From positions 1-9,304 of the IMG/VR virus record IMGVR_UViG_2671180603_000009: DNA of 9,304 nt. One strand, 5' to 3'. Positions 1 to 9,304 of the stretch are shown here, one piece after another. The notes below the pieces were generated by a model. That model had not been told where the DNA came from, ran no database searches, and was given only the letters and a program-made list of their open reading frames with translations. Made by a program: the position numbers and the translations under genes. Position 1 is the stretch's first letter. Each line of letters opens with the position of its first letter. Origin of the DNA: a virus (taxonomy: Duplodnaviria > Heunggongvirae > Uroviricota > Caudoviricetes).

Positions 1-131
1 GGAGTGTCCGTTAAACTCAGGCTACCTCATACAGTGGGTAAACTTGTTTATCGGTGCTCATTGTTTTTTAACCTCAACTCAGATTAAAATTACTGCGAGT
101 GATGAATAAATGTCCCAGGTTCTTCACTCAG

Positions 132-161
132 GCCTGCACAGTGTGCAGGCTTTCTTTTTTT
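132..161 (+). terminator. Rho-independent terminator-like hairpin followed by T-run
   Basis: Perfect 8-bp inverted repeat GCCTGCAC (132-139) / GTGCAGGC (143-150) with 3-nt loop, then tttcttttttt (151-161). T-run is on the plus strand, so it would stop rightward transcription running into the minus-strand gene that ends at 161. Confidence 0.5.
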
Positions 162-436
162 CAGATTTCACCTTTTAATTTCATTGCAATCAGAGTTGCC
201 AGAAATTCGGCTTTTTTTTCTGCGGGCAGATTCTTTCCTATGTGCACCAGACACATTTTTTTTACACCATCGTTAAGTGTTTTAACGTTGCCTGATGGAC
301 CGTCGATATCAACCACAGTGAATGGGGTTTCTTTATTTTCTGTCTTAATCACGTAGCCAATACGCTTTCCTTCCAGATTAACCTCGTGAACAATGTCATC
401 AGTAGTTACAACAGTGGCTTCATAACTGGTAATCAT
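161..436 (-). CDS. hypothetical prophage protein (91 aa)
   Basis: ORF track 161-484; start chosen at internal ATG 436 (MITSYEAT...) because it is preceded by AAGGAG at 6-7 nt spacing. No family recognised. Confidence 0.65.
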   Translation of the reverse strand: MITSYEATVVTTDDIVHEVNLEGKRIGYVIKTENKETPFTVVDIDGPSGNVKTLNDGVKKMCLVHIGKNLPAEKKAEFLATLIAMKLKGEI

Positions 437-469
437 GTTTTTCTCCTTAATTAAGGTTGAGCGAACCCC

Positions 470-483
470 TGCCATTGCTGGCA
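470..483 (-). other. conserved hairpin at cassette boundary (GCAA tetraloop on minus strand); second copy at 1281-1294
   Basis: TGCCA-ttgc-TGGCA on plus, i.e. UGCCA-GCAA-UGGCA on minus; identical sequence at 1281-1294 downstream of each small-peptide gene. No U-run follows, so not called a terminator. Confidence 0.35.
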
Positions 484-520
484 TATAAGAATGAAACCGG
501 ATATTTATTACGGAACTGTT

Positions 521-712
521 TTAAAGACCTGCCGGGATTTCGTTATTATCATGGTGAATAACTTTATCGACCGGATAACAGTCACCGGGAATTTTCTGTT
601 TCGCTGCGGCAGTCATACATTCTTTCATTGAGCTGTATACGCCAGTAACCATGTCAACCGGTTCACCGGAAACAAGAAAAACCGTCAGAACGAGTGCAAA
701 TACTGTATTCAT
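521..712 (-). CDS. small putative secreted peptide, 63 aa (cassette copy 1)
   Basis: ORF track 521-766; start taken at ATG 712 (MNTVFALVLTVFLVSG...), which gives a hydrophobic signal-peptide-like N-terminus and an ATGA overlap with the stop of the upstream ORF at 709; two conserved Cys in the mature part; paralog at 1332-1523. Confidence 0.55.
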   Translation of the reverse strand: MNTVFALVLTVFLVSGEPVDMVTGVYSSMKECMTAAAKQKIPGDCYPVDKVIHHDNNEIPAGL

Positions 713-897
713 TGTGCACATCCTTTTGGCATCAGACGTAAACGAGCCAGCATTGAAACAATGCATATTTTATTTAATAGCTCCCGTTCGTGTTTTCTCT
801 TGTTAATGGCATCTTCAGTAAATACAGGGTTACTGATAGTGACACCAATTTCAAAACAACCTTCAGACGTATTAACGTTTGGTAATAACGTCTCCAT
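709..897 (-). CDS. hypothetical 62-aa protein (cassette copy 1)
   Basis: ORF 709-897; ATG 897 preceded by GAGGA at 7 nt; stop overlaps start of the peptide gene (ATGA); ~90% identical paralog at 1520-1708. Confidence 0.5.
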   Translation of the reverse strand: METLLPNVNTSEGCFEIGVTISNPVFTEDAINKRKHERELLNKICIVSMLARLRLMPKGCAQ

Positions 898-907
898 TAT
901 TGCGTCC

Positions 908-1238
908 TCAACAATGAATTTTGAGTAATTGTTCCACAGTCATATTTTTAATTGCGCCCCGGTTAACAAGAGTCCATCCCTGTTTTTCCAGATAAAACCG
1001 GAAAGTCTCCAGGGGACAGACCAGTGCGCCATCAGGAACGGTTTCGGTGAATTCGACATTGCCGAATTTGTCGAAGTGAACAACCAGGGTGCGGCCATCG
1101 CCTGGAATTATTTTGTCAGTGGGTGGGGTGTTATTCTGGCGCAGTTCGGCCTCCATGCGATCGAACTCAGCAATGTAGGCTTCTTTGAATGCGGCGGNNN
1201 NNNNNNNNNNNGGCGGCGCAAATAAAGACTTTACTCAT
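908..1238 (-). CDS. standalone homolog of the C-terminal domain of the Rha-like protein, interrupted by N-run 1198-1211
   Basis: Translation 908-1197 (...AAFKEAYIAEFDRMEAELRQNNTPP...LLKIHC) is ~92% identical to the C-terminal ~95 aa of the 1719-2276 protein. A candidate start ATG at 1238 (MSKVFICAA, GAGG upstream) lies beyond the N-run; frame across the Ns cannot be verified. Confidence 0.45.
1198..1211. other. run of 14 N (assembly gap or masked bases) inside a coding region
   Basis: Literal n characters; flanked on both sides by GCGGCGG-like sequence. Confidence 0.95.
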
Positions 1239-1331
1239 TTTGTTTTAACCTCATTACAGATTTAAGGGTGAACAAATCCCTGCCATTGCTGGCATATAAA
1301 AATGAAACCGGATATTTATTACGTGGCTGCT

Positions 1332-1523
1332 TTAAAGACCTGCCGGGACTTCTTTATTATCCTGGTGAATGATTTTATCAACCGGATAACAGTTACCGGG
1401 AATTTTCTGTTCAGCTGCAGCAGCCACGCATTCTTTCATGGAGTTGTATACTCCGGTAACCAGTTCAGCTGGTTCGCCCGTATTAAGAATAACGGTCAGA
1501 ACGAGTGCAAATGCTGTATTCAT
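1332..1523 (-). CDS. small putative secreted peptide, 63 aa (cassette copy 2)
   Basis: Start ATG 1523 (MNTAFALVLTVILNTG...), ATGA overlap with upstream ORF; ~75% aa identity to the 521-712 product. Confidence 0.55.
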   Translation of the reverse strand: MNTAFALVLTVILNTGEPAELVTGVYNSMKECVAAAAEQKIPGNCYPVDKIIHQDNKEVPAGL

Positions 1524-1708
1524 CGCCAGCATCCTTTTTGCATCAGACGCAAACGAGCCAGCATTGAAACAATGCATATTTTATTTAATGACTCCCGTTC
1601 GTGTTTTCTCTTGTTAATGGCATCTTCAGTAAATACCGTGTTACTGATAGTGACACCAATTTCAAAACAACCTTCAGTCGTATTAACGTTTGGTAATAAC
1701 GTTTCCAT
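1520..1708 (-). CDS. hypothetical 62-aa protein (cassette copy 2)
   Basis: ATG 1708 preceded by GAGGA (overlapping the rha stop codon); paralog of 709-897. Confidence 0.5.
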   Translation of the reverse strand: METLLPNVNTTEGCFEIGVTISNTVFTEDAINKRKHERESLNKICIVSMLARLRLMQKGCWR

Positions 1709-1718
1709 TATCGCGTCC

Positions 1719-2276
1719 TCAACAATGAATTTTGAGTAATTGCTCTACAGTCATATTTTTAATTGCGCCCCGGTTAACAAGAGTCCATCCCTGTTCTTCC
1801 AGATAAAACCGGAAAGTCTCCATGGTACAGACCCGTGCGCCATCAGGAACGGTTTCGGTGAATCTGATGTTGCCGCGTTCGTCGAAGTGAACAACCAGGG
1901 TGCGGCCATCGCCTGGAATTATTTTGTCAGTGGGTGGGGTGTTATTCTGGCGCAGTTCGGCCTCCATGCGATCGAACTCAGCAATGTAGGCTTCTTTAAA
2001 TGCAGCGGCTTTTTTGCCAGTGAATCCCATCACCAGGAAAACGAAGCCGTTTTTGGTGATTTGGTACATCGGGCGTTTTTCGCCTTTGGCGTCAGTGTAG
2101 GTGACGTCCTCAAAATTGAGGGCGTTAAATTCAGGTGAGCATTCAGTATTTGCGATGGCACGTAACACATTGTCGTGACGCTTGCCAAAGAACTCTGCGA
2201 TCGCAATAGACGTAGTGACAGCGCGACCATTTTCGATGGTTACGTCAGGGTGAGAAAGGGCAGGGATAGTAGCCAT
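1719..2276 (-). CDS. rha: Rha-family phage regulatory protein (185 aa)
   Basis: Start ATG 2276-2274 preceded by GAGGA at 7 nt. Translation contains the Rha-family signature as I recall it (...IAEFFGKRHDNVLRAI...FVFLVMGFTGKKAAAFKEAYIAEFDRMEAEL). ORF track extends to 2573 but that upstream extension is not accepted as coding. Confidence 0.8.
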   Translation of the reverse strand: MATIPALSHPDVTIENGRAVTTSIAIAEFFGKRHDNVLRAIANTECSPEFNALNFEDVTYTDAKGEKRPMYQITKNGFVFLVMGFTGKKAAAFKEAYIAEFDRMEAELRQNNTPPTDKIIPGDGRTLVVHFDERGNIRFTETVPDGARVCTMETFRFYLEEQGWTLVNRGAIKNMTVEQLLKIHC

Positions 2277-2316
2277 GATGGCATCCTCGAGTGATAAGTT
2301 AATTAACTCACCACCG

Positions 2317-2729
2317 AGGTTTTCCACGACCATAAGGGTGGTGTGACGTACAGGGGTGGAAATACCGGTCACTCGAGAACCCGGCCAGTCTTGCGACTGC
2401 CCTGCACATCCCACCATAATTTGAATGGAGCTGTGCATTACGCATAAAAAAACCGCTTCAGCGCGGCTATGCGCTCGAGTAACGTTCGGGTTTCCACGCC
2501 CGGCACCCGTTTTATAAGGTGCAGGTGCACTATAATTCCACCCGTTCTGGTTTTCAATAGCTACATTCAACATTTTCTCTTTCCTTTCATCACCGAAGTG
2601 AACTTTGTTGATGCGGTGCCTGGTGCCTCCAGGTGACGTTAACCAGTTAACAATTAACGCCGGATACAGGGAAACCCATAACCACCCGATACGGGGGAAC
2701 TAATCGCTTTTTAACTGTGCCGCGTGCGC
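2317..2729. repeat. copy 1 of a ~413-nt tandemly duplicated non-coding element immediately upstream of rha
   Basis: Aligns base for base with 2731-3143 (about 32 differences, ~92% identity); hairpin-rich; see findings. Confidence 0.9.
2446..2469 (-). terminator. terminator-like hairpin plus U7 within element copy 1
   Basis: Plus strand aaaaaaa (2446-2452) followed by ACCGC-ttcag-(c)GCGG; on the minus strand this is a GC hairpin followed by seven U. Stem is short (4-5 bp). Confidence 0.35.
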
Positions 2730-2730
2730 N

Positions 2731-3143
2731 AGGTTTTCCACGACCATAAGGGTGGTGAGACGTACAGGGGTGGAAATACCGGTCATCACGGAACCCGGCC
2801 AGTCTTGCGACTGCCCCGCACGCCCCACCATAATTTGAATGTGGCTGTGCATTACGCATAAAAAAACCGCCTGAGCGCGGTTATGCGCCGTGAATGACTT
2901 CGGGGTAGCAATCCCGGCACCCGTTTTATGAGGTGCAGGTGCACTATAATTCCACCCGTTCTGGTTTTCAATAGCTACATTCAACATTTTCTCTCACCTT
3001 TCATCACCGAAGTGAATTTTGTTGATGCGGTGCCTGGTGCCTCCAGGTGACGTTAACCAGTTAACAATTAACGCCGGATACAGGGAAACCCATAACCACC
3101 CGATACGGGGGAACTAATCGCTTTTTAACTGTGCCGCGTGCGC
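2731..3143. repeat. copy 2 of the ~413-nt tandemly duplicated element
   Basis: See 2317-2729; a single n at 2730 sits exactly at the junction of the two copies. Confidence 0.9.
2860..2883 (-). terminator. terminator-like hairpin plus U7 within element copy 2
   Basis: Plus strand aaaaaaa (2860-2866) then ACCGC-ctgag-(c)GCGGT; minus strand reads as a hairpin followed by U7. Confidence 0.35.
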
Positions 3144-3177
3144 TGAGCCGCATTCACCGCATCACAAAATTCACTTT

Positions 3178-3218
3178 AAAAAGGGCGGACATCAGCCAGC
3201 AATGAAACTGATGCCGCC
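3178..3218 (-). terminator. candidate Rho-independent terminator on the minus strand
   Basis: GGCGGACATCAG (3184-3195) pairs with CTGATGCCGCC (3208-3218), 11 bp with one bulge and a 12-nt loop; on the minus strand the hairpin is followed by CCCUUUUUAAA (plus a-run 3178-3182). Confidence 0.4.
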
Positions 3219-3418
3219 AAAGGTACCAATCAACATGGAGTGTTGTGGCGTGGTTGTCACTTAAGCGTATGGTCAACCTGACAACCCGGTGTCCTCAACG
3301 GGGAAGGAATAACTCCGCCATACTTACCGCCGCGTCATTTCGCGTTGTGTGCCTGCTTTTAACCACGTCAGGCGAGGTGGTATCCTTCTTATCCCGAATA
3401 ACCAAGAAGGAAATCTAT

Positions 3419-3619
3419 ATGACTAAAGAAGAATTTGTCTCTTATATTTTTGATAAAACGGTTGAAATGTATGCCGCTACTTACGGGTCCTGTAATCCTC
3501 TGAATAAACCAGAGGGAAAAGATGATTTCGACAAAATTTACCGCTTCTTGGAGGACCGCTATATCAAAAGCTTAGAGGACGCAGGGATCAAATCCCCAGT
3601 GAAGTCACCATTGTCCTGA
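3419..3619 (+). CDS. hypothetical small protein (66 aa), the only plus-strand gene in the left arm
   Basis: ATG 3419 preceded by AAGGAA at ~7 nt; the ORF track start at 3245 uses an alternative start with no RBS and is rejected; 3' end overlaps the convergent gene 3588-3965 by 32 bp. Confidence 0.5.
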   Translation: MTKEEFVSYIFDKTVEMYAATYGSCNPLNKPEGKDDFDKIYRFLEDRYIKSLEDAGIKSPVKSPLS

Positions 3620-3965
3620 GAACTTGCAGAACGTCATGATCATAACTTCCATCCAAACCGCGACGGCGAATTGCTTCTCGTATTACCGGAAGCAGTTCGC
3701 TGGAAATCTCGGTGCATATTTCACCTGATAATACGCTTGGCTCAAGTGAGAATATTGGTGAACTTACGGTCTTGGTCTCGACAGTTTCAGAGTCAGTGCC
3801 AACATTATAAAGCTCAACGAAAGCGGTCTTGATTTTCCGGGCCAGATCTTTTGCTGGCTCGCTTGCAATATCTTTCCCGATTTCTCGCAGCACAGAATGC
3901 AATGTATGAGCTGCTGTTTTCTGTACATCAGACGGTAAATCTTTAAATTCCATCGTCAGCCTCAT
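3588..3965 (-). CDS. hypothetical protein (125 aa; 121 aa if started at ATG 3953)
   Basis: ATG 3965 overlaps the stop of the upstream gene (TGATG coupling); alternative ATG at 3953 has GAGG 6 nt upstream. No family recognised. Confidence 0.6.
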   Translation of the reverse strand: MRLTMEFKDLPSDVQKTAAHTLHSVLREIGKDIASEPAKDLARKIKTAFVELYNVGTDSETVETKTVSSPIFSLEPSVLSGEICTEISSELLPVIREAIRRRGLDGSYDHDVLQVLRTMVTSLGI

Positions 3966-4117
3966 CAGTCAGTGTTTCTGGCTAACCAGCAACGCGCGCC
4001 AGATTCGGTTTTAAACGTTTTGCTTTTGGTATACGTCATGGCGGTAAACGTTCCATCCTGGTTAGGGAACACGCCGCACACCAGAGATTCGTTGTTGCCA
4101 AGATCGATAGTATCCAT
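3965..4117 (-). CDS. hypothetical small protein (50 aa; 68 aa if started at 4171)
   Basis: ORF track 3965-4171; ATG 4117 (MDTIDLG...) has GAGGT 5 nt upstream whereas ATG 4171 has no obvious RBS. First gene downstream of the operator-controlled leftward promoter. Confidence 0.45.
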   Translation of the reverse strand: MDTIDLGNNESLVCGVFPNQDGTFTAMTYTKSKTFKTESGARCWLARNTD

Positions 4118-4296
4118 GCTGACCTCATTTCCCCTTAACGCCGGGGTGGCGGAACAAAAAACCTGCTGCATAGTTAAAGATTGAACCCTGCCGTCATGTT
4201 CTTACGCCTCGGGCTGGCTACTTAACCCCTGACCACTGTCTGGTAACTCGAAGTATTGCCCTGCATTCTGTGGGGCGGGGTGGGTTGACGCCTGAA

Positions 4297-4338
4297 AAAA
4301 TAGCATCATTATTTTTTGATGTAAATAGCATCGCTATT
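4297..4338 (-). promoter_or_regulatory. leftward early promoter (PL-like) overlapped by two repressor-operator-like inverted repeats
   Basis: Minus strand reads TTTACA (plus 4320-4325), 17-bp spacer, TATTTT (plus 4297-4302). Inverted repeats AATAG-N5-(C/T)TATT at 4299-4313 and 4324-4338, centres 25 bp apart, overlap the -10 and -35; same motif recurs at 5434-5473. Confidence 0.5.
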
Positions 4339-4350
4339 GTTTTTGTTGGG

Positions 4351-4377
4351 GCAAGAAAAAACCACCCTAAGGTGGTT
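4351..4377 (-). terminator. Rho-independent terminator downstream of the toxin gene
   Basis: AACCACC-ctaa-GGTGGTT (4360-4377) preceded on plus by an A-run (4356-4361); on the minus strand this is a 7-bp stem followed by UUUUUUC, 17 nt after the stop at 4394. Confidence 0.6.
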
Positions 4378-4393
4378 CTGTCGGCGGGAATAA

Positions 4394-4684
4394 TTAACTG
4401 TTTTTGCCTGGATACTGTCTTCGAGAATGCACAATATTTACTACTTCTATGCTTGATGCTGTTACTCGGTAAAGGATGATGTAGTTAGGATGAGTTACAA
4501 TTTCACGAAGACCAAGAACTCGCTCGCTTGGAGGATACAGGTAAGGATGCTCTGTGAGCGGCAAAACGGATGTTTCAATTCGAATTTTCATTCTGCGTGC
4601 TGCCGCGGGATTTTCTTTAGCTATGTAGGCTACGATCTGGCGCAAATCATCACGAGCAGATGGTAGCCATAAAACGGGTAACAT
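4394..4684 (-). CDS. parE: ParE/RelE-superfamily toxin (96 aa)
   Basis: Translation MLPVLWLPSARDDLRQIVAYI...HPYLYPP...LREIVTHPNYIILYRV...VVNIVHSRRQYP matches my recollection of ParE-type toxins; start overlaps the stop of the upstream antitoxin gene (TAATG). Confidence 0.8.
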   Translation of the reverse strand: MLPVLWLPSARDDLRQIVAYIAKENPAAARRMKIRIETSVLPLTEHPYLYPPSERVLGLREIVTHPNYIILYRVTASSIEVVNIVHSRRQYPGKNS

Positions 4685-4878
4685 TATTCACCTCTGTGAG
4701 TTGCAGCAGCAATTTGGGCAATAATTTGTTCCATTTCCGCCATTACCTCATCATGCGGAATCGCCGGGCGGGGATCCGCGAGGCTTGCTGCTACTTTGGC
4801 CCGCAGCCATTCGTTGTAACTATTTTCTTGCTCAACTGTCTCAAATTCTGAAACCATTGGGGAAAGGACTGTACTCAT
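4684..4878 (-). CDS. small antitoxin (64 aa), likely PaaA/ParD-like partner of the ParE toxin
   Basis: Small acidic protein directly upstream of and translationally coupled to the toxin gene; AGGAG-like RBS about 12 nt upstream of ATG 4878. Resemblance to the PaaA2 antitoxin of E. coli O157 is from memory and unverified. Confidence 0.65.
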   Translation of the reverse strand: MSTVLSPMVSEFETVEQENSYNEWLRAKVAASLADPRPAIPHDEVMAEMEQIIAQIAAATHRGE

Positions 4879-4897
4879 TTTACATATCTCCTCTGAT

Positions 4898-5398
4898 TTA
4901 GGCGCGACGGCCTTTTTGTGCAGCTAACCACCGCGCAACCGTACGATCCATTGATTCTTTTTTATCTTTCATCTCCTGAAGCATGTGTTCTTGATCTTCT
5001 TTCGGAAAAGCTCTGAACGTATGGATTAAATCTCGTTCCATCGGCTCTACGGCAAACGGTAGTTCATCCTCTGTTTGTTCTGTGTCTGCTGGTAATGCGA
5101 CTATGTTATCTTGCTGTGGTTCTCGACAATACATCCTTGCAATTTGCAGCAAATCTACCATGTCTGGCCTGATTGACTCAGGGGGAACTTTCAGTAAGCC
5201 AGCAAACTTTAGAACAGCCTCAAGGTTTAGTGGGGTTTGACCATTTAGGTAGTGACTTACCGCCCCTTGTGTTGAAAACCCCATAATTTCCGCCGCACGT
5301 TCCTGAGTCAATCCCAACTGAGATTTCTTTGCCATCCAGATTTCTTTCAGTCTTCTGGCGGCGTTGAGGTCGGTGTCTGACAATGATTTTCTTTTCAT
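4898..5398 (-). CDS. HTH (XRE-family) transcriptional repressor, RacR/PaaR-like, 166 aa
   Basis: ORF track 4898-5428 (GTG start); ATG 5398 (MKRKSLSDT...) preferred. HTH-like segment LGLTQERAAEIMGFSTQGAVSHYLNGQ; acidic C-terminus with no recognisable S24 peptidase (LexA-like) motif; divergent from the Cro-like gene and 19 nt upstream of the antitoxin gene. Confidence 0.75.
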   Translation of the reverse strand: MKRKSLSDTDLNAARRLKEIWMAKKSQLGLTQERAAEIMGFSTQGAVSHYLNGQTPLNLEAVLKFAGLLKVPPESIRPDMVDLLQIARMYCREPQQDNIVALPADTEQTEDELPFAVEPMERDLIHTFRAFPKEDQEHMLQEMKDKKESMDRTVARWLAAQKGRRA

Positions 5399-5405
5399 AC
5401 ATCCA

Positions 5406-5475
5406 ATTCTAATAAGATTGCTAATCACTTTGAAATAGCATCACTATTTACTTTTAAAAATAACAGTGCTATTAA
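5406..5475. promoter_or_regulatory. divergent promoter/operator region (OR-like)
   Basis: Inverted repeats AATAG-catca-CTATT (5434-5448) and AATAA-cagtg-CTATT (5459-5473), centres 25 bp apart, plus weaker AATAA-gattg-CTAAT (5411-5425). Plus-strand TTTACT (5447-5452), 17 bp, TATTAA (5470-5475) upstream of the Cro-like gene; minus-strand TTTCAA/18 bp/TAGAAT (plus 5406-5411) just upstream of the repressor ATG. Confidence 0.5.
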
Positions 5476-5509
5476 TTATGCATTGGTAACACATCACATA
5501 GGGCGGATT

Positions 5510-5773
5510 ATGAATCTTGGAGAATATTTGCATCATTTTCATATAACCCAGAGTTCATTTGCTGAGATTGTTGGCGCATCCCAAGGGATGGTCAGCCACG
5601 TTATAACGGGGCGTGCAAAACTTACAGGAGAAAAAATATTACGTTGGTGTGAAGCAACGGGATGGGTGGTGACCCCACATGAGATTGACAGTAAAACCTA
5701 CCCCAACCCAACTGACGGCTTGCCTGCTGAGTTTCAGGCTAACACACAACCATCGGCGGGGGTTGATTCATGA
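5510..5773 (+). CDS. Cro-like / YdaS-family HTH protein (87 aa)
   Basis: ATG 5510 (MNLGEYL...); ORF track start 5483 is a TTG. HTH-like TQSSFAEIVGASQGMVSHVITGRAK; first rightward gene divergent from the repressor; stop overlaps next gene (ATGA at 5770-5773). Confidence 0.7.
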   Translation: MNLGEYLHHFHITQSSFAEIVGASQGMVSHVITGRAKLTGEKILRWCEATGWVVTPHEIDSKTYPNPTDGLPAEFQANTQPSAGVDS

Positions 5774-6195
5774 AAATCAAGCATGAACACATCCGCATGG
5801 CGATGAAAGCCTGGGCGCATCCGGACGGTGAAAAAGTTCCGGCAGCTGAAATAACCAGGGTTTATTTCGAACTGGGAATGACGTTTCCGGTTCTGCATAA
5901 CGACAGCAAGCACAACACGCTTTATCTCAACACCCAAAAGATTTTCCGTTGGCTGGATAAAGACACCCCTGACGCTGTTGAAAAAATTCAGGCGTTGTTA
6001 CCTGCGATCGAAAGGGCAATGCCACCTCCGCTGGTGGCTCGAATGCGCAGCCACAGTTCAGCTTATTTTCGGGAACTGGTGGAGACGCATGAACGACTGG
6101 TGAGAGACGCTGATGATTTTGTCGCAGTGGCAATCGCCGGTTTCAATCAGATGAACCGTGGTGGCCCGGCAGGAAATGCTGTGGCAGTACATTGA
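5770..6195 (+). CDS. YdaT-like protein (141 aa)
   Basis: N-terminus MKIKHEHI... and position directly after the Cro-like gene match my recollection of Rac prophage YdaT-family proteins; translationally coupled to the upstream gene. Confidence 0.7.
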   Translation: MKIKHEHIRMAMKAWAHPDGEKVPAAEITRVYFELGMTFPVLHNDSKHNTLYLNTQKIFRWLDKDTPDAVEKIQALLPAIERAMPPPLVARMRSHSSAYFRELVETHERLVRDADDFVAVAIAGFNQMNRGGPAGNAVAVH

Positions 6196-6266
6196 CTGAC
6201 AATAGCCATATCGAATCGCTCCCGGCAACTCGTGAGTAAAAAGATTCGGTATCAGAAGAGGTGAGT

Positions 6267-7331
6267 ATGGCTAACGCCTGGCTCAGATTATGGCATGACA
6301 TGCCAAATGACCCTAAGTGGCGAACAATTGCCAGGGTGTCAGGGCAGCCAATTGCAACAGTGATGGCAGTGTATATCCACCTCCTGGTGAGCGCGTCACG
6401 AAATGTCACGCGAGGTCACATTGATGTCACGACAGAAGATTTGGCAAGTGCGCTCGACGTGACAGAAGAGGTAATTGATTCAATTTTGCAGACGATGCAG
6501 GGGCGGGTACTTGATGGTGATTTAATCACTGGATGGGAAAAACGCCAGGTGCTTAAAGAGGACAACGGCAATATTTCGCAAACCGCAAAATCTCCTGCAG
6601 AGCGCAAGAGGGCGCAGCGAGAGAGGGAAAGAAAGCGGGAACAAAATGGCGATTGTCACGGCGCGTCACGAAATGTCACGCACATGTCACGACGAGTCAC
6701 GACAGATACAGATAAAGATACAGATAAAGAAGATCAAAACACTATGGTCCATGGCGTAAAAAACGCCACGAACCAGGCAGGGGATGTTCAGACCGTCAAT
6801 CCTGGTCAGCCAGCAGGCTCGACACCGGAAGCCGATTCAGCGTATGCGCTGAAAGCCGATTCGGGCGCTGTGCAGCAGGTGATGACCGCAAGGCCGGAGC
6901 AATCACTCCAACTGCAGCAGCCTGAAGCCGATTCCGCCATTCAGCGGGAAGCCGATCGGGTAGCCCCGGAAAACACCGGGCAGCCTGTGGGACGAGTGGA
7001 TTATCCGGATGTGTTCGAACAGGTCTGGCGGGAATACCCGTTGCGTGCCGGGGCAAACCCGAAGAAATCCGCATTCAGTGCCTGGAAGGCCAGATTGCGC
7101 GAGGGGGTGCCACCAGAGACCATGCTGGATGGTGTGAGGCGTTACGCGAGATACCTGGCGGCGACCGGGAAAGCGGGAACGGAATTTGTTCAGCGAGCGA
7201 CGACGTTTTTTGGGCCGGACCGGAATTTTGAAAACCCCTGGTTGCTCCCGGTAAGCGGCACGAACAACCAGCGTTGTGTGAATCATATTTCTGAACCGGA
7301 TACCGAAATTCCGCCGGGATTCAGGGGGTGA
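6267..7331 (+). CDS. phage replication initiator / replisome organizer (O-like, YdaU-type), 354 aa
   Basis: ATG 6267 preceded by AGAGGTGA; N-terminus MANAWLRLWHDMPNDPKWRTIA... is typical of prophage replication proteins as I recall them; iteron-like repeats lie inside the gene; followed 6 nt later by a DnaC-like gene. Confidence 0.8.
   Translation: MANAWLRLWHDMPNDPKWRTIARVSGQPIATVMAVYIHLLVSASRNVTRGHIDVTTEDLASALDVTEEVIDSILQTMQGRVLDGDLITGWEKRQVLKEDNGNISQTAKSPAERKRAQRERERKREQNGDCHGASRNVTHMSRRVTTDTDKDTDKEDQNTMVHGVKNATNQAGDVQTVNPGQPAGSTPEADSAYALKADSGAVQQVMTARPEQSLQLQQPEADSAIQREADRVAPENTGQPVGRVDYPDVFEQVWREYPLRAGANPKKSAFSAWKARLREGVPPETMLDGVRRYARYLAATGKAGTEFVQRATTFFGPDRNFENPWLLPVSGTNNQRCVNHISEPDTEIPPGFRG
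6388..6430. repeat. iteron cluster 1 (four GTCAC(G/A) repeats at ~10-bp spacing)
   Basis: GTCACG at 6392, 6402, 6423 and GTCACA at 6412; the 21-mer gcgcgtcacgaaatgtcacgc (6388-6408) is repeated exactly at 6661-6681. Confidence 0.6.
6654..6728. repeat. iteron cluster 2 (five GTCACG repeats) plus AT-rich 12-bp tandem repeat; candidate replication origin
   Basis: GTCACG at 6655, 6665, 6675, 6686, 6696 (spacing 10/10/11/10), then gatacagataaa x2 (6705-6728). Arrangement resembles phage lambda, whose origin lies inside gene O. Confidence 0.55.
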
Positions 7332-7337
7332 TGTGGC

Positions 7338-8084
7338 ATGAAAAACATTGCGGCAGCCGGGGTTCTTGAACGTATTCACAGACTTGCACCACAGGGGGCG
7401 GTTCCACCGTACCGGACGGTGGAGGAGTGGCGGGAATGGCAACTTGCTGAAGGACGAAAACGCAGCGAGGAGATTAACCGCCAGAATCGCCAGTTGCGGG
7501 TGGAAAAAATCCTGAATCGTTCGGGCATCCAGCCTCTGCACAGCAAATGCTCGTTTGCGAATTATCAGGTGCAGAACGACGGGCAAAAATACGCGCTGAG
7601 CCAGGCCAAATCCATAGCTGACGAACTGATGACCGGGTGCACGAATTTTGTGTTCAGCGGTAAAACCGGCACCGGGAAAAATCACCTTGCAGCGGCGATG
7701 GGTAACTGGCTGATGGCGAAGGGGCGCAGCGTGATTATCGTCACCGTGTCTGATGTCATGAGCGTGTTGCATGACAGCTACGACAACGGCAAATCCGGTG
7801 AAAAATTTTTACAGGAGCTTTGCGGGGTTGATTTGCTGGTCCTGGATGAAATAGGCATTCAGCGGGAGACGAAAAACGAGCAGGTGGTATTGCACCAGAT
7901 AATTGATCGCCGGACAGCATCACTGTGCAGTGTCGGGATGTTAACAAACCTGAATCATGCCGCAATGAGCACGCTTCTTGGTGAGAGGATTATGGACCGC
8001 ATGACCATGAACGGTTGTCGGTGGGTGACGTTTAACTGGGATAGCTGGCGTTCAAATGTCAGCTTTCCGGGAGTTGTGAAGTAA
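7338..8084 (+). CDS. DnaC/IstB-like AAA+ helicase loader (248 aa)
   Basis: Walker A GKTGTGKNHLAAA and Walker B LLVLDEIG visible in the translation; start 6 nt after the initiator stop. Confidence 0.85.
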   Translation: MKNIAAAGVLERIHRLAPQGAVPPYRTVEEWREWQLAEGRKRSEEINRQNRQLRVEKILNRSGIQPLHSKCSFANYQVQNDGQKYALSQAKSIADELMTGCTNFVFSGKTGTGKNHLAAAMGNWLMAKGRSVIIVTVSDVMSVLHDSYDNGKSGEKFLQELCGVDLLVLDEIGIQRETKNEQVVLHQIIDRRTASLCSVGMLTNLNHAAMSTLLGERIMDRMTMNGCRWVTFNWDSWRSNVSFPGVVK

Positions 8085-8105
8085 TTTTTGTTGGAGGATG
8101 TTTTA

Positions 8106-8831
8106 ATGGAAACTGTATTTGACGCACTGAAAGCACTGAAAAGAGCCTCTTCACATGTGGTGGCGTCCCGCCTTGGAATCAGCCGTGAAGATGCGGTCAA
8201 CGAACTGTGGAAACTGAAGCGCCGTGGTGAAGCGGATAACAAGGGTTCGATGTGGTGGCTGATTCAGGCTGGTGAAAGTGAACCAGTGTCACCGGTACCG
8301 AAAGTGACAGCGCAAATGCTGACTGAGGCGATTGAACAACATGGCCCACAAACGGCGGATGAGCTGGCACTGATGTTCGGGATTACCTCCCGCCGGGCGA
8401 ATTCATCGCTGGCCATGGCAATCAGCAAAGGGCGTCTGATTCGCGTGAATCAGGGCGGTAAATTTCGGTACTGCATACCGGGCGCTGATTTACCGGCAGA
8501 GCCGAAAGCCGCATCCATAGCGGAAACGGATGGTAAAGTCTTTCCTCAGCCAGCAGGTGTTGCGTTACCGGTACAGGAAGCTGCAACACAGGAAGAAATT
8601 AAAACAGAAACTGTGGCGGACATTGTGCAGTCGTTGCCATCGTTCACCGAAACGCAAGCGGATGACCTGGTTTTACCATCGCTGCATATGGCAAACCGCG
8701 AACTGCGTCGGGCGAAAAGTCATGTCCAGAAGTGGGAGCGTGTCTGCGCCGCGTTGCGGGAGCTGAACAAGCACCGGGATATTGTTCGACAGATTGTCGA
8801 TTCCTCCGGTCGTATTGTGTCGGAAAAGTGA
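8106..8831 (+). CDS. hypothetical prophage protein with two winged-helix-like repeats (241 aa)
   Basis: ATG 8106 preceded by GGAGGA; ORF track start 8088 is TTG. Two similar N-terminal segments ([10 protein letters not shown]...; [10 protein letters not shown]...), acidic linker, coiled-coil-like C-terminus. Family not verified. Confidence 0.6.
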
Positions 8832-8846
8832 TTGCCGGGGGCGCTT

Positions 8847-9269
8847 ATGGCAAAAGTATTTACACAGGAAGAGCGGGAAAAAATTAAGGGGCAGGTTGTT
8901 GAACTCGTACGCCAGAGTGGGCGCGAGACGTTACGACAACTGGAAGCTAAAACCGGGGCGACAAGATATTTAATAAGCGTTCTCGCCAGAGAGCTGGTTG
9001 CCAGTGGGGATGTATACAACTCTGGCTACGGGTTATTCCCGTCTGAACAGGCTCGTAAGGACTGGCAAAACGCCCGCAAAAAACTCTCGAGGGCAAAGCT
9101 GAAGAAACCATCTGTGGTTGATCCGGACCTTATCTGGTCATTACCAGACGGAGAAATACGCCGCTACGACAGACATCAGAACATAATCTGTCGCGAGTGC
9201 CGGAAGAGTGAAGTTATGCAGCGTGTACCGGCTTTCTATCAGGGTGATTTTCAGGAGGCGGTACTGTGA
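8847..9269 (+). CDS. hypothetical protein (140 aa)
   Basis: ATG 8847 preceded by GGGGG at ~6 nt; ORF track start 8832 is TTG; basic, possibly DNA-binding; no family recognised. Confidence 0.55.
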   Translation: MAKVFTQEEREKIKGQVVELVRQSGRETLRQLEAKTGATRYLISVLARELVASGDVYNSGYGLFPSEQARKDWQNARKKLSRAKLKKPSVVDPDLIWSLPDGEIRRYDRHQNIICRECRKSEVMQRVPAFYQGDFQEAVL

Positions 9270-9304
9270 GTGAAATTAGCTATCAGGCTTCAATTACCGC
9301 TGGC

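Follow-up and report, generated by a model that had tools for sequence, protein, structure and literature searches.

A small accessory gene in the sieB position of a lambdoid prophage and a predicted sas-like antisense element at its 5' end

Gene content and orientation of the locus

We analyzed a stretch of 9,304 nt from a virus of the class Caudoviricetes (IMG/VR record IMGVR_UViG_2671180603_000009, positions 1 to 9,304), here referred to as the window. Judged by its gene content, the window represents the immunity region of a Qin/Rac-type lambdoid prophage. Read in leftward direction, the order is an HTH repressor, PaaA2/ParE, a predicted early-left promoter, a DUF1391/YdfA gene, a partner gene, a small ORF on the plus strand, a DicF-like sRNA and modules of isrK, C4 and antirepressor type. 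The features which are relevant for this study were as follows:

3183-3231, minus strand: DicF-like sRNA (Rfam RF00039, 38.8 bits against a gathering score of 48, E = 1.5e-6)
3188-3215, minus strand: predicted terminator of the DicF-like sRNA, located downstream on the leftward transcript
3345-3424, minus strand: predicted sas-like antisense segment, comprising the complement of start codon and Shine-Dalgarno (SD) sequence, hairpin 2, hairpin 1 and the tail UAAAAGCAGGCACACAA
3351-3381, both strands: conserved core element, 91% identical to P22 29650-29684
3362-3366 and 3377-3381: hairpin 1 (ACCAC/GTGGT), with an interleaved alternative stem GCCTG (3351-3355)/CAGGC (3369-3373)
3378-3386, plus strand: candidate extended -10 TGgTATCCT with a -35-like TTAACC (3359-3364) at a 16-nt spacer, as read from the sequence
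3383-3411, both strands: hairpin 2, an 8-bp inverted repeat of TCCTTCTT (3383-3390) and AAGAAGGA (3404-3411) with a 13-nt loop
3407-3412, plus strand: SD sequence AAGGAA, 6 nt before the ATG and in the 3' arm of hairpin 2
3419-3619, plus strand: small ORF of 66 aa (phrog_34441) from ATG 3419-3421 to TGA 3617-3619, the accessory gene of this study
3588-3965, minus strand: convergent partner (phrog_33007) of 125 aa, or of 121 aa if the start is at 3953, with the stop codon at 3588-3590
3965-4171, minus strand: DUF1391 gene of YdfA/YdaF type, the first gene of the leftward operon (Pfam PF07151, E = 3e-28)
4297-4325, minus strand: predicted early-left promoter TTTACA-17-TATTTT with an upstream TG, based on a consensus match only
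4898-5428: HTH repressor

Coordinates and length of the small ORF were exactly as originally predicted, and so was the overlap of 32 bp (3588-3619) with the 3' end of the partner gene. Among the plausible genes of the left arm it was indeed the sole one on the plus strand; the ORF list contained many shadow ORFs besides. No minus-strand terminator was predicted between 3588 and the terminator of the DicF-like sRNA, and thus the entire small ORF lies antisense to the leftward operon. The original prediction, according to which the two transcripts are antisense to each other at their ends, was therefore correct but understated. The early-left promoter is presumed to be the source of the predicted antisense transcript.

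A plus-strand gene at this position is also known from other lambdoid elements. The corresponding order is racR, ydaG, ydaF (DUF1391), sieB (plus strand, with a 3' overlap of 4 nt), the kilS sRNA and kilR in Rac, and c2, PL, gene 24, sieB (plus strand) and ral in P22. Judging from gene order, the small ORF is found where P22 and Rac carry sieB in their early-left operons, that is, in the position of an accessory gene opposite the early-left operon between repressor-proximal genes and genes of the kil/dicB type.

The small ORF and its convergent partner

Comparative analysis indicated that the small ORF is a genuine conserved prophage gene. It matched phrog_34441 over its full length (E = 2e-49) and is annotated in RefSeq as WP_000159335.1 in BL21 as well as in phage mEp460. 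In a search of 5.8 billion proteins the full-length homologs shared 54-98% identity and were all 65-66 aa long. An HMM search of 1.84 billion cluster representatives added one relative of 73 aa and retrieved 10 representatives only at E < 1e-10, several of which were fragments or mis-called extensions of the small ORF. A remote homolog of 63 aa was found in SfII (hhalign probability 92%). The reading frame of 65-66 (or 73) aa was kept in six divergent lineages, and pairwise Nei-Gojobori comparisons between lineages yielded dN/dS values of 0.08-0.36 with dS near saturation. A correctly spaced SD sequence preceded the ORF in all lineages. The AF2 model of the protein was a two-helix hairpin (pLDDT 82, helices 3-22 and 31-54).

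This narrow family and the lack of a match in the Pfam, NCBIfam, PADLOC and fold searches described below might also be expected of a non-coding shadow frame, conserved only through overlapping RNA elements or through the partner gene. We regard this explanation as very improbable. It is at odds with a frame and length that persist at 54% amino acid identity although synonymous sites are saturated and dN/dS is low, and with an overlap to the partner gene that is limited to the last 32 nt. The remote homolog of SfII, the confident AF2 model and the spacing of the SD sequence in all lineages speak against it as well. A longer frame of 124 aa starting at GTG 3245 was ruled out, since an upstream indel of 82 nt in relatives is not a multiple of three.

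The 66-aa protein was assigned to no accepted Pfam family and no NCBIfam family. A hit to the Pfam family Zn_ribbon_16 was rejected (E = 0.04, sub-threshold, no Cys pattern). Foldseek of the model against the PDB retrieved nothing at E < 4, and the PADLOC HMMs for anti-phage defence gave no hit at E <= 0.1 with either the small ORF or its partner. The Pfam search did not detect the SieB domain (PF14163) in the 66-aa protein, compared to E = 1.5e-31 for SieB of Rac. A conserved internal start comparable to that of Esc was not found either; the sole internal Met (codon 17) was not conserved in the homologs. A literature search returned nothing usable on the protein accession, on ECs2282 or on the start sites of sieB-type genes. 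Its position would suit a factor for exclusion or conversion that is expressed in the lysogen and possibly cooperates with the convergent partner.

Protein homologs of the partner were all annotated as 'hypothetical'. The partner carried a conserved C-terminal domain of ~45 aa (LPVIREAIRRxGLxGxYDHxV..RTMxTSLG), and this domain was found beside an intact small ORF in all 66 of 66 loci, always convergent and overlapping at the 3' end. In loci L005 and L006 the homolog of the partner had 129 aa and was 28% identical (E = 7e-8 in a comparison limited to these two sequences), uncalled partner ORFs were present in Cedecea (L003) and SfII (L078), and L069 carried a partner-like gene of 63 aa with a weak match. 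In Cedecea the pair of small ORF and partner was located between cro and a cII-like gene. It thus moved as a unit and is again placed antisense to an early operon. This constant companionship suggests a functional pair.

Of 5426 complete E. coli genomes, about 390 contained the small ORF. The laboratory strains BL21 and E. coli C carry it, in BL21-Gold(DE3) at 2187465-2187665 of NC_012947.1. In about 1,680 more E. coli genomes the upstream flank of the gene was present alone and reached no further than its first 37-64 nt. Thus, the presence of the gene is variable among related prophages. The original prediction had suggested a moron-like insertion, and this is supported by the opposite orientation of the gene, by its variable presence and by the finding of another plus-strand ORF behind the flank in 3 of 3 inspected loci. 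Morons of lambdoid prophages are described as autonomous accessory genes (PMC7067206). The small ORF resembles them in being variable, oppositely orientated, likely equipped with its own promoter and one of several different cargos at a single site. Unlike them, it lacks a predicted terminator of its own: the scan for terminators and promoters predicted no terminator after 3619, and the extended -10 was the only candidate for an own promoter. Furthermore, it differs from the usual moron definition in travelling with a convergent partner gene and a conserved antisense element. In three relatives from IMG/VR an IS1 element was inserted after codon 15-16 of the small ORF.

The conserved upstream element and its hairpins

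A pattern scan of IMG/VR located the core element in more than 120 loci. Together with earlier searches, all loci gathered amounted to 180 core copies with 69 distinct downstream variants and at least 17 clusters of plus-strand cargo proteins, including SieB-like proteins. A plus-strand ORF with an SD sequence started within about 130 nt of the element in 149 of the 180 records, and no plus-strand ORF was detected in the other 31. The element was conserved at 90% or more across phages of Escherichia, Shigella, Salmonella, Cronobacter, Klebsiella and Hafnia, where it was attached to many unrelated small genes. No Rfam family matched it at E <= 10.

About 1,600 further E. coli genomes without the small ORF contained a sequence with 100% identity to positions 3345-3387 of the window. 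In three of these loci, which we inspected individually, both the hairpin and the plus-strand gene behind the element differed from those of the window; two of the genes were annotated, and one was an unannotated ORF. These genes encode an ECs_2282-type zinc-ribbon protein (APEC O18), a membrane protein of 106 aa and a protein of 151 aa, respectively. In APEC O18 the element is located upstream of ydfC, away from dicF and directly before the plus-strand ORF. Hairpin 1 was also considered as a terminator and rejected, for neither strand carries a T-run behind it.

The predicted pairing of CCTTCTT (3384-3390) with AAGAAGG (3404-3410) exists, the repeat being in fact 8 bp long, and in the sequence the SD motif AAGGAA does lie inside the 3' arm of hairpin 2 as proposed. 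RNAfold predicted hairpin 2 together with a second hairpin at 3362-3381 (-19.6 kcal/mol, z = -2.3 for 81 nt). Hairpin 2 by itself reached about -8 to -10 kcal/mol, which places the SD sequence in a stable local stem. The window contained 5 perfect 8-bp hairpins with loops of 3-20 nt compared to 3.15 +/- 1.9 in dinucleotide shuffles. Taken alone, hairpin 2 does not exceed chance, and its significance arises only through the comparison with relatives.

Two arrangements of the element were distinguished. In the long form, present in P22, Rac and many E. coli phages, hairpin 1 is followed by hairpin 2, a TATAAT-like box, a second repeat unit with the SD sequence and the ATG. The short form, found in the window and in at least ten other types of cargo and hairpin, contains a single repeat unit, so that the 3' arm of hairpin 2 is at the same time the SD sequence. 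The overlap of hairpin and SD sequence hence results from the loss of about 40 nt which part them in the long form.

Each of the 15 distinct short-form stem variants retained 6 or more contiguous pairs, and two-sided changes occurred at six positions of the stem. Hairpin 2 kept a constant register to hairpin 1, both with the SD sequence in the stem and with it outside. The SD sequence was located in the 3' arm in 12 of the 15 variants; in the remaining three (SfII, L133 and phiES15) the GGA core was outside the stem. Pairing was thus not conserved together with the SD sequence, and the long-form hairpin holds no functional SD sequence at all. Based on these comparisons, hairpin 2 is considered to be real and under selection, and to track the core element rather than the ribosome site.

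The two forms also differed in the strand on which hairpin 2 folds better. In long forms this was the minus strand in 23 of 27 variants and the plus strand in none, with a mean difference of 3.6 kcal/mol, which fits a structure of the sas RNA. Among 22 short-form variants 13 favoured the minus strand and 7 the plus strand, and 2 were equal. Owing to G-U pairs the plus strand was favoured in L005, L065, L144, L166 and SfII, by 3-5 kcal/mol in some of them. RNAalifold on a MAFFT alignment of the long forms did not recover hairpin 2, because the arms were out of register, and proposed a GCCUG/CAGGC stem. Stems were therefore counted per variant in Python.

A strict promoter scan listed no plus-strand promoter upstream of the small ORF. 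Besides its TG, the candidate extended -10 matches the consensus at 8 of 12 positions; it was not listed, since the threshold of the scanner was 9 of 12. The motif TGgTAT(C/A)(C/T)T was present in all short-form variants, where it overlaps the 5' arm of hairpin 2, and absent from the long forms. In every short form an extra A after GGTGGT creates TGnTATnnT; the long forms are without this A and have their TATAAT-like box 26-34 nt further on. Cedecea (TGaTACCCT) and L069 (TGtTATTCT) kept an extended -10 at equal distance from the ATG despite having no hairpin 1. From this motif, the plus-strand start would probably be at about 3392-3396, inside the loop of hairpin 2. As the extended -10, the one promoter-like motif that is conserved here, overlaps the 5' arm, the mRNA is probably without hairpin 2.

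Relation to the P22 sieB/sas region and predicted regulation

To our knowledge, sas is so far a single example, from P22, dating from 1993. The 5' flank of the small ORF (3345-3411) is homologous to the region upstream of sieB in P22. In a BLAST search against phage records, positions 3348-3381 of the window shared 91.4% identity over 34-35 nt with P22 and many P22-like phages. The match in P22 (29650-29684) is located directly upstream of the annotated sieB promoter (29690-29720), the RNA start (29727) and the ATG (29758).

The sas RNA from infected cells has been sequenced in a small-RNA study of 2026 and is 127 nt long (PMC13397905). We mapped this sequence exactly to the minus strand of L076 (1487-1613). 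The RNA begins 2 nt beyond the sieB start codon; a stem-loop (UUCUCG..CGAGAA) comes next, followed by the conserved core and a 29-nt tail. The minus strand of the window aligns with sas over both hairpins and the tail, hairpin 2 corresponding to the stem-loop UUCUCG..CGAGAA. Hence, also in the window two stem-loops of the leftward strand are found immediately 3' of the start-codon complement. The homology with sas covers its structured body; the target-pairing part is necessarily gene-specific. According to statements in PMC12197685 and PMC7067206, both citing Ranade & Poteete 1993, sas pairs with the sieB mRNA and switches its translation.

As in the P22 sieB/sas region, the window contains a plus-strand accessory gene opposite the early-left operon, the homologous core of ~35 nt (91% identity) and a second stem-loop at equal spacing. 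In contrast to P22, the cargo is an unrelated 66-aa protein, predicted to be soluble and two-helical, rather than the SieB membrane protein, and an Esc start is missing. The P22 translational switch is therefore not literally applicable. The window also lacks the ~40 nt which hold the sieB promoter, the RNA start and the second repeat unit. Consequently, hairpin 2 abuts the SD sequence and a different promoter, the candidate extended -10, must serve. Taken together, the locus is best described from its sequence as a variant of the P22 sieB/sas arrangement, the non-SieB cargo, the fusion of the stem to the ribosome site and the conserved convergent partner being new.

Other known systems share parts of this arrangement. 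In Rac of K-12 a DUF1391 gene is likewise followed by a convergent gene on the plus strand, which overlaps a minus-strand gene at the 3' end of the latter, and then by an sRNA and a division inhibitor. The homologous upstream element of Rac contains a covarying stem GCCCGG/CCGGGC. Rac differs in carrying sieB itself and a long form with about 70 nt from hairpin 1 to the ATG, while in the window an additional gene, the partner, separates the DUF1391 gene from the small ORF. In K-12, polycistronic transcription in leftward direction is documented for the region equivalent to that of the window (PMC10448788). The dicBF operon of K-12 Qin (ydfABC-dicF-dicB) shares the DUF1391 gene in first position, an sRNA of the DicF type and a homologous DicF leader. 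It contains ydfB and ydfC in place of the partner and the small ORF, and of the element no more than a degenerate remnant is left. The window in turn is without the 82 nt which form the RNase III stem in Qin and continues into the isrK/C4/antirepressor module instead of dicB. The OOP RNA of lambda, for which a separate promoter, a separate terminator and an overlap with the 3' end of cII are stated in PMC7067206 (refs 40-41), is likewise a short antisense RNA (here a predicted one) against a message of the early operon region in a lambdoid phage. It is the closest idea to the 3'-end antisense regulation suggested originally. However, the conserved antisense element of the window covers the 5' end of the gene and appears to be derived from read-through of the operon.

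Of the options considered originally, antisense regulation is the best reading of the locus, owing to the homology of the 5' flank with the sieB/sas region of P22; the antisense RNA itself is predicted. We consider it moderately probable that the small ORF is a lysogen-expressed accessory gene which is shut off by a sas-like antisense RNA as soon as the leftward operon fires. In the lysogen the leftward promoter would be repressed, and the extended -10 (3378-3386) would drive transcription of the small ORF. The resulting mRNA would have a leader of about 25 nt, in which the SD sequence is free for translation. When the early-left operon fires, upon induction or from an infecting relative, antisense transcription would run through the small ORF and generate a sas-like RNA composed of the complement of start codon and SD sequence, hairpin 2 and hairpin 1. 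This RNA would pair with the 5' end of the mRNA and turn translation off, and transcriptional collision may add to the effect. The inverted repeat would accordingly be the stem-loop of the sas-like antisense RNA. We infer the promoter, the existence of the antisense RNA at this locus and its effect on translation. The antisense partner originally named was the gene with the 32-bp overlap at the 3' end. This overlap exists, but the relevant partner would rather be the whole leftward transcript at the 5' end of the small ORF.

Originally, the hairpin had been proposed to control translation by structure. In such a model the mRNA would start upstream of 3383 and hairpin 2 would occlude the SD sequence in cis until opened by temperature, a helicase or another opening factor. 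The position of the SD sequence in the 3' arm, here and in 12 of the 15 short-form variants, the covariation of hairpin 2 and the better fold on the plus strand in 7 of 22 short-form variants are consistent with this. The register of the stem, however, follows hairpin 1 and not the SD sequence, and the GGA core is outside the stem in SfII, L133 and phiES15. In the long forms the hairpin is a minus-strand structure upstream of the predicted -10 (in P22, of the mapped/annotated start). Moreover, there is no credible promoter within the conserved upstream 37-43 nt, and in APEC O18 the element begins only 22 nt from the ydfC start codon. The extra A of the short form makes the TAT of the -10, and its TA is mostly outside the stem yet invariant. 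We therefore consider occlusion in cis rather unlikely. While the hairpin is real and selected, it probably does not sequester the SD sequence in cis, its register being fixed to hairpin 1 and the SD sequence lying outside the stem in 3 of 15 variants.

The hairpins might also be processing or stability signals of the leftward transcript, such as the boundary of a DicF precursor or a protector of the 3' end, and be unrelated to the small ORF. An adjacent long stem in K-12 Qin is indeed an RNase III site which creates a 190-nt DicF species (PMC10448788), and the calculated 5' end of this species aligns to the 3' arm of GAAAGCGCAxGG / CCGTGCGCTTCC. The minus-strand nature of the long-form hairpins and the 31 of 180 core records in which no plus-strand ORF was detected would fit this explanation, too. 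On the other hand, the element of APEC O18 is distant from dicF and directly before a plus-strand ORF, such an ORF with an SD sequence follows within about 130 nt in 149 of 180 records, and the P22 RNA bearing these hairpins is reported, in the statements cited above, to regulate the adjacent gene. A mere role in processing thus seems unlikely to us.

If antisense control by a sas-like RNA is general, the element would allow accessory genes expressed in lysogens, which are candidates for exclusion or defence factors, to be recognised by sequence. It would also account for the shut-off of these genes upon entry of the prophage into the lytic cycle. A more far-reaching proposal, which we put forward as speculation and regard as improbable in its entirety, is that the ~70-nt element is a portable two-strand cassette of promoter and sas scaffold. 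It would mark a site of cargo exchange in enterobacterial lambdoid prophages, with the 66-aa protein and its partner as an unrecognised exclusion/self-immunity pair. In P22, Esc neutralises SieB. If the reading as a pair is true, the lysogen would supply the small protein, and a relative, induced or incoming, would express the partner from its early operon; the partner would neutralise the small protein as Esc does SieB, and the antisense RNA would reinforce the switch. The fusion of hairpin and ribosome site in the short form provides a compact and directly testable arrangement.

Small ORF and convergent partner gene in related loci

Comparison of the related loci identified an IS1 element within the small ORF, inserted after codon 15–16, in three IMG/VR relatives (L066, L067 and L068). 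A single site was used, in both orientations, and the upstream context of L067 and L068 was that of the window itself. The conserved C-terminal domain of the convergent partner was also found to be encoded by uncalled minus-strand ORFs, located at 3568–3897 in the Cedecea locus (L003) and at about 1130–1336 in the Shigella phage SfII (L078). In Cedecea, the first stop of this minus-strand frame was reached only beyond the entire small ORF.

Two contigs carrying this gene of E. coli-type prophages (L008 and L010) are labelled as Veillonella parvula and Geobacteraceae MAGs. These labels are likely the result of mis-binning.

Alternative folds of the conserved core and the sas loop

Within the conserved core (3351–3381) two interleaved stems can be formed, GCCTG (3351–3355) with CAGGC (3369–3373) and ACCAC (3362–3366) with GTGGT (3377–3381). 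Since their arms follow the order a-b-a'-b', either a pseudoknot or two alternative folds are possible. RNAfold chose the GCCTG/CAGGC stem for the minus strand and the ACCAC/GTGGT stem for the plus strand. The first stem showed covariation in Rac (GCCCGG/CCGGGC).

In P22 (L076, 1541–1600) and other long forms a unit of approximately 14 nt (ACCCCTACAGnGAGA) is directly repeated. Because of this repeat the 10 nt with which the sieB mRNA starts (ACCCCUACAG) also have a complement in the sas stem-loop, namely in its loop (CUGUAGGGGU). Based on this complementarity, a contact of the loop with the 5' end of the sieB mRNA could occur beyond the cis-antisense pairing.

Small-RNA matches and an 82-nt deletion

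Matches to known small RNAs, together with one terminator, were as follows.

3183–3231, minus strand: divergent DicF-like sRNA (RF00039, E = 1.5e-6; 38.8 bits, gathering score 48)
3188–3215, minus strand: terminator of the DicF-like sRNA
3018–3171, minus strand: STnc100 (Rfam sRNA), matched in part and below threshold (31.6 bits, E = 1e-4)

The window lacks 82 nt which are present in BL21 and K-12 Qin, with the junction at approximately 3338–3345 and TTTCGCG/TTTCGTG repeats flanking the deletion. The missing nucleotides form a long stem (GAAAGCGCAxGG / CCGTGCGCTTCC). For the RNase III-dependent 190-nt DicF species of K-12, the 5' end calculated from this length and the DicF 3' end lies inside the 3' arm of this stem. 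Leftward of its DicF-like sRNA the window carries isrK/C4/antirepressor modules in place of dicB.

Possible duplication of the antirepressor region and predicted early-left promoter

Both isrK and the C4 antisense RNA were present twice (2334–2522 and 2748–2936, minus strand). ORF sets were likewise duplicated (about 161–1156 vs 1332–2573) with an N run between them; N runs are located at 1198–1211 and 2730. The doubled sets could reflect an antirepressor module duplicated in tandem, or else an assembly artefact.

The repressor gene and the predicted early-left promoter are separated by a gene pair.

4394–4878, minus strand: ParE toxin / PaaA2 antitoxin pair

A perfect 8-bp palindrome (4295–4317) overlaps the predicted early-left promoter and may be an operator.
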